This document shows, piece after piece, positions 12,427 through 16,854 of a stretch of 32,000 bases of DNA (positions are counted from its first letter, which is position 1; the number at the start of each line of letters is the position of its first letter). The DNA is from Candidatus Heimdallarchaeota archaeon (GTDB lineage: Archaea; Asgardarchaeota; Heimdallarchaeia; Heimdallarchaeales; Kariarchaeaceae): positions 480,001-512,000 of the forward strand of contig JASBSB010000006.1 of NCBI GenBank assembly GCA_030149205.1, read 5' to 3'. The notes under the pieces are model-generated. The model made no database searches. It was not told the origin of the DNA and saw only the letters and a list, made by a program, of their open reading frames with translations. A program made the position numbers and the translations under genes.

Positions 12427-12516
12427 TGCGCAATGCGGGAATTTCGGAGACAATCCTCTATCGAACCCGCTCCCTAAGCTTGGGAAGCTCATGTGCTACC
12501 ACTACACTAATTGCGC
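12427..12516 (-). tRNA. tRNA-Gly(CCC) with a T-loop 59/60 intron
   Basis: Acceptor stem GCGCAAT/ATTGCGC plus A73; TGAGC-TT-CCC-AA-GCTTA; T-stem GCGGG/CCCGC. The mature form is 71 nt. Confidence 0.93.
12441..12459 (-). other. tRNA-Gly non-canonical T-loop 59/60 intron (19 nt)
   Basis: Perfect BHB: central helix TTCG/CGAA, bulges AT^A and AT^T, intron stem GAGG/TCTC. Confidence 0.9.
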
Positions 12517-14679: not shown

Positions 14680-15708
14680 TTATTTAATCCCCATAATCTG
14701 TAATGCCGTATTCCAGTGTTCCTCATCAACTGTCTTTAAATTTGCAACAGCGTCAGCCAAATCAACCGGAATAATTTTTGTTCCTTTAAGTGCAGGCATT
14801 TTTCCAAATTCTCCATCTTTAAGGAGATTAATAGCAGCTAGACCCAATCTTGTACACAACACCCGATCATAAGCACTGGGTGGGCCCCCTCGTTGAATAT
14901 GGCCTAGAGTAATTGCTCTGGTTGGGACATTTAATTCATTCTTTAACTCATCCGCAATTTTTTGACCTATGTTTATTTTCTCCATTCTGATGTGCCCAAA
15001 TTCATCCTTTATAAAATGTTCTTCATGCTCTTCTGTGAACCCATAACCCTCTGACACAGCAATAATACCCCATTCCTTCCCAGATTCATACCTTTTCTTT
15101 ATCAACTCTACAACTGTGTTAAAGGGTAATGGATATTCCGGGATGAGAATCACATGAGCACCACCTGCAATTCCAGAGTACAAAGTCAACCACCCTGCAT
15201 GTCTCCCCATAAGTTCAACCACTATAACCCTATCATGTGACTTAGCTGTAGTTTTTACCTTGTCTAAGGCATCTGTTGCTATCGTAACAGCAGTATTGAA
15301 ACCGAAGGTATAATCAGTTTCATCAAGATCATTATCAATTGTTTTAGGAATTCCAACTATACGAATACCTTCTTGAGTAAGTTTATTTGCAACACCCAAG
15401 GTGTCCTCACCTCCAATTGCGATGATTGAATCTAGTTCAAAATTTTGTATTGTTGATTTTATTTTGTTTATCCCTTCAGGGTCTTTGTAGGGATTAACTC
15501 TTCCAGATTTTAAGATTGTTCCTCCTAGGTTTAATAAATCATCAGGGTCATCAGGCAGTGAAAGGGTCTCACCATCCATCAATCCCTTCCAGCCCCCCTT
15601 AAATCCAAAGAATTCATAACCGAGTAACTTTCCATGAATTAAGATTGCGCGTATTACAGTATTCATCCCAGGGGTATCTCCACCTGAGGTTAATATTCCA
15701 ACCTTCAT
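14680..15708 (-). CDS. pfkA: 6-phosphofructokinase, PfkA family group III, probably PPi-dependent
   Basis: LTSGGD.PG.N, GGTIL.SGR, GGEDT, PKTIDND, ELMGRHAGW, LGHIQRGG. Confidence 0.92.
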   Translation of the reverse strand: MKVGILTSGGDTPGMNTVIRAILIHGKLLGYEFFGFKGGWKGLMDGETLSLPDDPDDLLNLGGTILKSGRVNPYKDPEGINKIKSTIQNFELDSIIAIGGEDTLGVANKLTQEGIRIVGIPKTIDNDLDETDYTFGFNTAVTIATDALDKVKTTAKSHDRVIVVELMGRHAGWLTLYSGIAGGAHVILIPEYPLPFNTVVELIKKRYESGKEWGIIAVSEGYGFTEEHEEHFIKDEFGHIRMEKINIGQKIADELKNELNVPTRAITLGHIQRGGPPSAYDRVLCTRLGLAAINLLKDGEFGKMPALKGTKIIPVDLADAVANLKTVDEEHWNTALQIMGIK

Positions 15709-15836
15709 AATTTACACGATAAAACTTTATTATTAAAACTGAAGCATCAACTCTAAATTTTTTCTTAATTTATTGTTAGTATTAGCTCCAAGGGTAAGAT
15801 ACTTTAAATCTTGTCACTCTAGTGAGGAGTAGACCA

Positions 15837-15900
15837 CCCCGATGATGAAACTTAAGGTTTGCTGAATTATTTTATGAGGAAAATCTGGAGCACTGAGGGG
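15837..15900 (+). ncRNA. Box C/D 2'-O-methylation guide sRNA (64 nt)
   Basis: Terminal stem CCCC/GGGG. C box ATGATGA 15842-15848, D' CTGA 15862-15865, C' ATGAGGA 15874-15880, D CTGA 15893-15896. Guides of 13 and 12 nt. TTTAAA TATA box at 15803-15808. Confidence 0.88.
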
Positions 15901-15984
15901 ATTTCTTCTAATTCTTATTTGTGGTGTTTGGGCAATTTAACAAAAACCATTAATAGATATAAATTAATTTAGATTGAAATTAAC

Positions 15985-16854
15985 TTGGATTCAGAGCACT
16001 TGTATAGTTTTCCCAAATTTAAGAATCTCCCAGTTTTTACTAATAAAATCTTAGGATTACTTCAGTCAAAAATTCAATCTAAAGCTAGTGGAACTGAGAG
16101 TTTTCTTGTCTCAACTGATTTGAATCTGACGTCTAACACATTGGTTAGTTTAGATTTTGAACGTAAAGAAATCACACTGTTAAACCAATCTTTTAAAATT
16201 CCTGCTTCCTTTGACCCAAAAGATAATGTATGTTATTTCTTACAAAATGGTTTTTTGCATAAACTCTCCTTCCATGATGTTACAACAGGATATAGTTACA
16301 CCTTGGCACCCACATCATTCAGACCAATATTGAGAGTTTCTGCAACACAGATGCATAAAAAACCGTTCCTGGATATGTTAGAAAATCAAAATTTTATTGG
16401 AAATGGATTGGATGGTGGCACAGGATTGGGGTACAGTGCAATTATCGCAGCAAATTCATCAAATTCATTAGAAACTGTTGAATGGGACAAAAATGTGATA
16501 GAAATAGCTTCATACAACCCACATTCCAGAGACCTATTTGAAAAAGAAAACATTAAATTCATTCATGCTGATCTAACAAAATATGTCGAAGAGATAGAAA
16601 ATGAGACATTTGATTTTATTATTCAAGATGGAGGTACCCCGAAAAGCTCAGGGTTATTCTTTTCACAGACGCATGCAGATCATCTATTTAGAATATTGAA
16701 AAATAATGGTCAATTATATTTCTATTTACCCAAAAAGGGGATAACAAAGGGAAGAGATTTTGGGTCTGAACAAATCAAACGGATGAAGAAAGCAGGATTC
16801 TCTGTAAAGACTCGAAATAAAATTGGTTCATATACAATATTCAAAAAGAACTAG
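15985..16854 (+). CDS. Archaeal SAM-dependent methyltransferase (COG2521-like)
   Basis: LDGGTGLGYSAI, TVEWD.NVIE.A.YNP.S..L, FD.IIQD, RILK..G.L.FY, R.KKAGF; TTG start. Confidence 0.8.
   Translation: MDSEHLYSFPKFKNLPVFTNKILGLLQSKIQSKASGTESFLVSTDLNLTSNTLVSLDFERKEITLLNQSFKIPASFDPKDNVCYFLQNGFLHKLSFHDVTTGYSYTLAPTSFRPILRVSATQMHKKPFLDMLENQNFIGNGLDGGTGLGYSAIIAANSSNSLETVEWDKNVIEIASYNPHSRDLFEKENIKFIHADLTKYVEEIENETFDFIIQDGGTPKSSGLFFSQTHADHLFRILKNNGQLYFYLPKKGITKGRDFGSEQIKRMKKAGFSVKTRNKIGSYTIFKKN

Follow-up and report, generated by a model that had tools for sequence, protein, structure and literature searches.

A free-standing box C/D guide RNA gene in a Heimdallarchaeota genome with predicted specificity for the wobble C34 of intron-bearing tRNA-Trp

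The window, by which we mean the whole 32,000-nt stretch of DNA that was analyzed, comes from an assembly of 12 contigs (3.3 Mb, 35% G+C, 93.5% complete). A small RNA (sRNA) gene lies at positions 15837 to 15900 of the forward strand, in a 276-nt gap between divergent genes. The features of the locus are as follows.

14680-15708, minus strand: phosphofructokinase (PFK) gene flanking the sRNA
15803-15809, plus strand: TATA-like TTTAAAT, putative promoter of the sRNA, approximately 28-34 nt upstream of the terminal stem
15837-15840, plus strand: 5' half of the terminal stem, CCCC, pairing with GGGG at 15897-15900
15841-15848, plus strand: box C, (G)ATGATGA, reading GAUGAUGA; ATGATG is invariant in a 25-sequence alignment
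15849-15861, plus strand: D' guide AACTTAAGGTTTG (RNA AACUUAAGGUUUG), 13 nt; putative remnant of a tRNA-Trp C39 guide, with a conserved GGTTT core
15862-15865, plus strand: box D', CTGA (CUGA), read from the sequence
15866-15873, plus strand: spacer of 8 nt between box D' and box C'
15874-15880, plus strand: box C', (A)TGAGGA (UGAGGA at 15875-15880); homologues align ATGATGA or TGAAGGA here
15881-15892, plus strand: D guide AAATCTGGAGCA (RNA AAAUCUGGAGCA), 12 nt; CTGGAGC is invariant in 25 homologues
15888, plus strand: G at N+5 (fifth base upstream of box D), opposite C34 of tRNA-Trp
15893-15896, plus strand: box D, CTGA (CUGA), invariant in the alignment of 25 homologues
15897-15900, plus strand: 3' half of the terminal stem, GGGG; a T-rich tract, ATTTCTTCT..., comes next
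15985-16854, plus strand: methyltransferase-like open reading frame flanking the sRNA

The element combines boxes C and D near its two ends, able to form a k-turn, internal boxes D' and C', guide spacers of approximately 12 nt, a terminal helix and a guide in N+5 register. The D spacer measures 12 nt and the D' spacer 13 nt, 1 nt above the optimum, and a terminal stem of 4 bp (CCCC/GGGG) closes the C/D motif. A strict C/D pattern (RTGATGA, 11 to 13 nt, CTGA, 2 to 12 nt, TGANGA, 11 to 13 nt, CTGA) matched a single time when both strands of the 3.3-Mb genome were searched, at 15837-15900, with no matches in the reversed genome or in five shuffled versions. An identical contig of 212 nt from an independent vent metagenome spans the sRNA; its sequence, including the odd D' guide, is therefore no assembly error. 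In a genome this rich in A+T, the upstream TTTAAAT is weak evidence of a promoter belonging to the sRNA. In several homologues, A/T-rich TATA-like words precede box C by 36 to 40 nt. Judged by its sequence, 15837-15900 on the plus strand is confirmed as a genuine archaeal box C/D guide RNA with a gene of its own, not annotated before. An earlier note, made from the DNA letters alone, had described complete C, D', C', and D boxes and a free-standing, independently promoted sRNA. All four boxes were found, between 15841 and 15896 and enclosed by the terminal stem, and the free-standing character, with a putative promoter, is borne out.

Scanned with Rfam at gathering thresholds, the window yielded two tRNAs only and no C/D family. 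When the region 15835-15903 was scanned by E value, nearly every match was a C/D box family, the best being sR3 (RF01133) with 32 bits and an E value of 1.3e-6, below the gathering score of 41; in a whole-genome run, the sR3 score was 20 bits, again under the 41-bit threshold. Assignment to sR3 failed on this score and on location, since members of that family lie inside the tRNA-Trp intron. With regard to the dual guide of sR3, the arm for C34 is present, and the arm for position 39, which comprises 7 to 12 bp in relatives, has only 5 + 3 bp here. The likeness to sR3 may be convergent through a common target, because boxes and target together fix most positions. Genes for the proteins of a C/D ribonucleoprotein (RNP) were detected with Pfam, including two of the Ribosomal_L7Ae family, on contigs C7/C8, and the following operon on the same contig as the sRNA.

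Contig C2, approximately 30.3-32.1 kb: Nop5-fibrillarin operon (Fibrillarin, 251 bits; adjacent Nop-domain protein, 172 bits)

The tRNA-Trp gene was found by hand, from a listing of every GCTCCAGAT site in the genome.

Contig C4, approximately 629799-629923, minus strand: tRNA-Trp(CCA) gene of the window's genome (G000, locus L055)

The sRNA (contig C2) and this gene (contig C4) are thus unlinked. The 5' part reads GGGGAUG-UA-GCGU-AGCUCGGC-AGCGC-A-UCUGG-CUCCAG and leads into the intron AUUAGGUUUAAAAUACCUGAGCAGUAAA, after which the gene continues as ACCAGA-AGGUC-GGGGG-UUCAAA, an insertion of approximately 19 nt, and AUUCCCUC-UGUCCCC-A. The first intron, at position 37/38, is 28 nt long, starts with AUUAGG and ends with GUAAA; the second, of approximately 19 nt, interrupts the T-loop. 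It is on account of these two short introns that tRNA finders miss the gene. Calls of tRNA-Trp by ARAGORN, with or without introns, and by Rfam were of low quality and were rejected as false matches in A+T-rich DNA, and our own T-arm and acceptor scans returned the same 21 to 22 or so tRNA genes with no credible tRNA-Trp among them. No C/D boxes occur in the 28-nt intron, which is too short to hold a guide. Two expectations of the earlier note, a tRNA-Trp lacking a C/D intron in this lineage and located outside the window, are thereby borne out. In related genomes, tRNA-Trp genes were recovered from ten members of the window's family (f1), two of its sister family (f4) and three of family f2. 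All carry an intron of 27 to 33 nt at 37/38, and several carry further ones.

Introns are a wider feature of tRNA genes in these organisms. The tRNA-Trp genes of relatives contain up to three or more (G004). Standard tools see only about 22 tRNA genes in the 93.5%-complete genome of the window, many of them with introns of 10 to 13 nt, and the remaining genes are probably hidden by noncanonical or multiple introns. A T-loop intron is also present in tRNA-Leu(UAA) (contig C4, approximately 455.8 kb) and in tRNA-Gly(CCC) (window positions 12427-12516, minus strand), whose intron is 17 nt long; Rfam detects the latter gene and ARAGORN misses it. The rRNA genes are unlinked as well and lie on different contigs, 16S at C2:630352-631803 (minus strand) and 23S at C8:255460-258678 (plus strand). 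At 3219 nt against the 2987 positions of the model, the length of the 23S gene suggests insertions or expansion segments.

With the tRNA-Trp precursor, the D guide forms 10 contiguous Watson-Crick base pairs from G31 to intron position +3, that is, with GCUCCAG and, past the junction, AUU. The outer two guide bases are unpaired, the gene reading GGCUCCAG up to the junction and AUUA beyond it. With the spliced tRNA (..CUCCAGACCAGA..), 8 bp from G31 to A38 are available, and the duplex energies amount to -17.6 kcal/mol for the precursor versus -15.2 kcal/mol for the spliced form. C34 is located at N+5, opposite G15888. This upholds the earlier note, according to which the fifth nucleotide upstream of box D pairs with C34. 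The target string given there holds in part; the bases it counted as U39 to U41 belong to the intron, the mature tRNA having C39, C40, and A41. The same register, C34 at N+5, was obtained for 11 of 11 sRNA/tRNA pairs tested, with duplexes of 10 to 11 bp on the precursor versus 8 to 10 bp on the spliced tRNA. A duplex of 10 bp is modest, at the low end of what is accepted for guides; Lui et al. (PMC6009581) as a rule asked for 9 or more continuous pairs in their survey.

Both guides were also compared, with G-U pairs allowed, with the 16S and 23S rRNAs and 22 tRNAs, and the best sites reached 9 to 10 of 12 to 13 positions with internal mismatches. A whole-genome duplex scan returned, beyond tRNA-Trp, ordinary coding contexts only. 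A longer match in rRNA, which the earlier note had named as a finding that would speak against its prediction, was not seen: the best rRNA sites match the D guide at 9 to 10 of 12 positions, with two or three internal mismatches. The real target could nonetheless be an rRNA or an mRNA, given that the 12-nt complement of the D guide has three further exact matches in the genome. Those three sites lie in A+T-rich, coding-like contexts, are close in number to chance expectation and are not conserved as targets, whereas the part of the guide that is conserved across phyla corresponds exactly to the tRNA-Trp anticodon loop. We regard such a target as extremely improbable. Most likely, the D guide directs 2'-O-methylation of the wobble base C34 (Cm34) in a tRNA-Trp that still bears its intron.

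Homologues were initially found by BLAST and a loose pattern search, and a covariance model was then built from 25 aligned sequences. This model detected the sRNA in all 11 genomes of the window's family and in all 3 of the sister family. Within family f2, some genomes of genera g11 and g12 gave weaker matches with degenerate boxes; g7 and the two complete genomes of g10 gave none. In the alignment, the core CTGGAGC and boxes C and D do not vary. The terminal helix varies in sequence and keeps its pairing (75% of cells versus 42% in shuffles), with a covariation score of 0.82 versus 0.24 for shuffled alignments; none of 500 shuffles scored as high, and slid controls gave 0.18 to 0.32. This record weighs heavily against a chance motif or dead relic that is neither transcribed nor assembled. 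In 11 relatives, the neighboring PFK and methyltransferase genes are absent from approximately 1.5 kb around the sRNA; this lack of conserved synteny would be in keeping with a relic. However, a strict motif found once in the genome and never in the controls, retention in every genome of the family, invariant boxes and CTGGAGC core and a covarying terminal stem make a relic or chance motif very unlikely.

A pattern scan across prokaryotes, with each species represented by one genome, reported 29 matching stretches. By class, 11 were of the Heimdallarchaeota type, 2 came from Undinarchaeota and 5 were bacterial; 13 were from Micrarchaeota or Anstonellales, including one labelled "uncultured archaeon." The five bacterial matches were discarded, being located in G+C-rich, coding-like DNA and about as numerous as expected by chance. 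A search of family f2 for a D-type Trp guide with canonical boxes gave two matches, which lie in coding sequence and lack a C box; they were discarded too. A match in family f3 (L144, G013:C94:642-703) is not a Trp guide: its D guide, AGAUCUUGAGUA, fits C34 of tRNA-Leu(CAA), and it represents a separate C/D sRNA that the covariance model recognizes weakly. A metagenome-assembled genome of the same genus as the window's (G002) holds two guide copies, C248:9066-9123 and C393:7125-7175, one typical of its own family and the other nearly identical to the f4 type; the second copy is either a paralogue or bin contamination. In the Micrarchaeota genomes G083 and G085 (L120-L128), we observed a second tRNA-like gene with GCUCCAG, a short intron and a different 3' stem, ACCGGC, which may be a second CCA-anticodon tRNA or a pseudogene.

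Whether the guide acts before or after splicing can be addressed through the bases past A38. Here the complementarity continues into the intron, so that an unspliced precursor is the most likely substrate. The intron of this genome begins with A, the same base as A38, and only intron positions +2 and +3 therefore discriminate between the two forms. The intron starts with AUU in the window's family, where the guide has AAU, and with ACU in the sister family, where it has AGU; in all, intron starts AUU, ACU, GUU, AUA, and AAU face guide sequences AAU, AGU, AAC, UAU, and AUU. Four tRNA-Trp introns of DPANN archaea begin with GUUC, AUAA, GUUC, and AAUC and are faced by GAAC, UAU, G-A-C, and AUU, respectively. 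For six lineage representatives, 17 of 18 pairings between intron positions +1 to +3 and positions 9 to 11 of the cognate guide were Watson-Crick. Noncognate pairings of guides and introns averaged 1.4 of 3, and the cognate score was reached by 2 of 720 permutations of partners. In the Micrarchaeota genome G083, the guide pairs over 11 bp with the precursor and over only 7 with the spliced tRNA. The base following G37 is an intron G there, and the guide has a C at this position, not the U that A38 would need. This C opposite the intron G constitutes the main argument for the unspliced precursor as the substrate.

One might instead suppose that Cm34 is guided on spliced, mature tRNA-Trp and that the match to the first intron bases is incidental. 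The 8 contiguous pairs from G31 to A38 in this genome, and 9 to 10 in the sister family, would be compatible with that, and published surveys, for example, that of Pyrobaculum sR26 (PMC6009581), scored mature tRNAs. Three observations oppose it: guide positions 10 and 11 never fit C39 and C40 in the family and always fit intron positions +2 and +3, the guide bases covary with the intron across six lineages, and the guide C of G083 faces an intron G and is unable to pair with A38. Action on the mature tRNA is accordingly unlikely in our assessment, and the unspliced precursor is retained as the predicted substrate.

The D' guide has a traceable history. In relatives it has the form (N)cUGGUUU(N) and faces intron positions -2 and -1, A38, C39, C40, A41, G42, and onward, forming 7 to 9 bp in the window's family and 12 bp in the sister family. 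C39 falls at N+5 with a D' spacer of 12 nt and at N+6 with one of 13 nt (the sister family and one of the G002 copies). Positions 41 to 43 covary with the guide (A41-G42 with c-u, G41-A42 with u-c, and A-A-C with g-u-u). In the window's sRNA, the GGUUU core is kept and two central bases are changed (UUAAGG versus CUGG), leaving 5 bp, two mismatches and 3 bp on pre-tRNA-Trp. Even so, no site within pre-tRNA-Trp fits this guide better than that of C39, with 9 of 13 positions. The D' arm of G009 has decayed too. The earlier note had remarked that the complement of this guide contains CUUAAG, like the loop of tRNA-Leu(UAA), without assigning it a target. The tRNA-Leu(UAA) gene, which reads GGGGA-CUUAAGA-UCCUC, shares only the 6 bases CUUAAG and was rejected as a target; the D' guide is better read as a degraded form of the C39 guide that is intact in relatives. 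No other stable-RNA target was found in the assembly (16S, 23S, detectable tRNAs and the genome duplex scan), nor did a second sRNA of the genome supply a replacement C39 guide.

The D' arm is probably decayed and likely weak or inactive in this genome, as its base changes suggest. A competing account is that it has been retargeted, to an RNA missing from the 93.5%-complete assembly or to one that is not a stable RNA. The guide differs from those of all relatives at the two central positions (TTAAGG versus CTGG), it is identical in the independent metagenome, and, with about 22 of the expected archaeal tRNA genes detectable, hidden multi-intron tRNAs do exist. On the other hand, no site of at least 11 bp was found in a tRNA-like or rRNA context, tRNA-Leu(UAA) has just those 6 bases in common with it and the C39 site is still the best in pre-tRNA-Trp. 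The AAACC...AAG complementarity that is kept is what simple decay would leave, and in sRNAs that target tRNAs the second guide is as a rule an orphan (PMC7994747). We consider retargeting to be the less probable account, one that nevertheless deserves some weight, and prefer decay of the C39 guide.

The euryarchaeal tRNA-Trp guide is the textbook example of a functional tRNA intron. Clouet d'Orval et al. are said to have found, in 2001, that both duplexes of the intronic guide cross exon-intron junctions. The tRNA-Trp intron of Archaeoglobus fulgidus contains the box C/D RNA sR3 (PMC4117494). In Haloferax and Pyrococcus, the guide within the intron is responsible for Cm34 and Um39 on the precursor and is able to act in trans (PMC7994747, PMC4090602). 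Cm34 itself has been detected in tRNA-Trp from S. acidocaldarius, H. volcanii, and T. kodakarensis (PMC7668247). The intronic guides (sR3, RF01133; Pyrococcus sR50; Haloferax volcanii) are dual and address positions 34 and 39 of tRNA-Trp, and the sR3 consensus has the layout seen here, with the D' arm directed to position 39 and the D arm to C34. They differ in that the present guide lies outside the intron, on another contig, with a boxless intron of 28 nt; in that position 39 is a C here and not a U; and in that the position-39 arm lacks two central pairs in this genome.

Free-standing guides for tRNA-Trp are known from another phylum. Pyrobaculum sR26 (Thermoproteota) was described by Lui et al. 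in 2018 (PMC6009581) as a free-standing C/D sRNA with C34 of tRNA-Trp at N+5. According to the published description it has a single tRNA target, and targets were predicted on mature tRNAs; the same work calls dual guides on one tRNA rare. The window's sRNA resembles it in having a gene of its own and a guide specific to the anticodon loop of tRNA-Trp, with C34 at N+5. The statement of the earlier note that this lineage uses a trans-acting guide thus holds insofar as an unlinked gene was found, although such an arrangement is not new in archaea, as the published sR26 demonstrates (PMC6009581). The free-standing guides of Micrarchaeota and Undinarchaeota have the same order of boxes and the same cores, GGTTT for D' and CTGGAGC for D. 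As here, the tRNA-Trp introns are short, and the D guide extends across the exon-intron junction. These are distant DPANN archaea with other intron starts, matched by their guides, and, unlike that of the window, their D' guides are intact.

Closer to the window, the Heimdallarchaeota genus g11 (G029, G036) has the same dual guide at the following loci.

L151:178-243: guide of G036
L148 (G029:C28:8712-8777): guide of G029

The D guide cgaCTCTGGAGCa faces GCUCCAG and, past the junction, AG, and the D' guide aatTGGTTTa is directed against AAACCAAUU. The boxes are degenerate, with AAUGAAU for C and AUGA for D and D'. The tRNA-Trp gene precedes the guide on the same strand, at a distance of approximately 68 nt, whereas the two are unlinked in the window's genome; in g11 they may be cotranscribed.

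From the motifs, complementarity, register, conservation, covariation and protein genes described above, we infer transcription, RNP assembly, methylation and its timing as follows. We hold it probable that the locus encodes a free-standing C/D sRNA of approximately 64 nt with its own promoter that directs Cm34 on pre-tRNA-Trp, and whose D' guide descends from a C39 guide. L7Ae, Nop5, and fibrillarin, each encoded in the genome, would join the sRNA in an RNP. Its D guide would pair across the 5' exon-intron junction of the tRNA-Trp(CCA) precursor, with C34 in the fifth pair from box D, and fibrillarin would form Cm34 before the 28-nt intron is removed. The ancestor of the D' guide would be a second guide, which in relatives spans the junction between intron and 3' exon and has C39 at N+5. 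The sRNA would then correspond to the dual guide sR3/sR50 of the euryarchaeal tRNA-Trp intron, encoded in trans at an unlinked locus. What is new is the lineage, Asgard archaea, and the unlinked gene layout of a known guide system; the mechanism is not new.

The guide has been located in the intron (Euryarchaeota), beside the tRNA gene (g11) and unlinked from it (the window's family, Micrarchaeota and Undinarchaeota). As a tentative proposal, which we put forward as possible and no more than that, the C34/C39 guide could be one ancient archaeal module that was repeatedly relocated while its duplexes over both junctions were kept. If so, the short, guideless tRNA-Trp intron would be retained because it belongs to the landing site of the guide. 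The RNP over both splice junctions would mask the bulge-helix-bulge, making methylation before splicing a checkpoint, and the window would show the first step in the loss of the position-39 arm.

Cm34 stops tRNA-Trp from reading UGA. In these Asgard archaea, the guide predicted to place this modification is encoded elsewhere and would still recognize bases of the intron. Intronic, adjacent and unlinked guides form a natural series in which the movement of guide RNA genes can be studied, and the system bears on the retention of the tRNA-Trp intron and on the order of modification versus splicing. The analysis also brings to light many multi-intron tRNA genes that standard finders overlook in these genomes.
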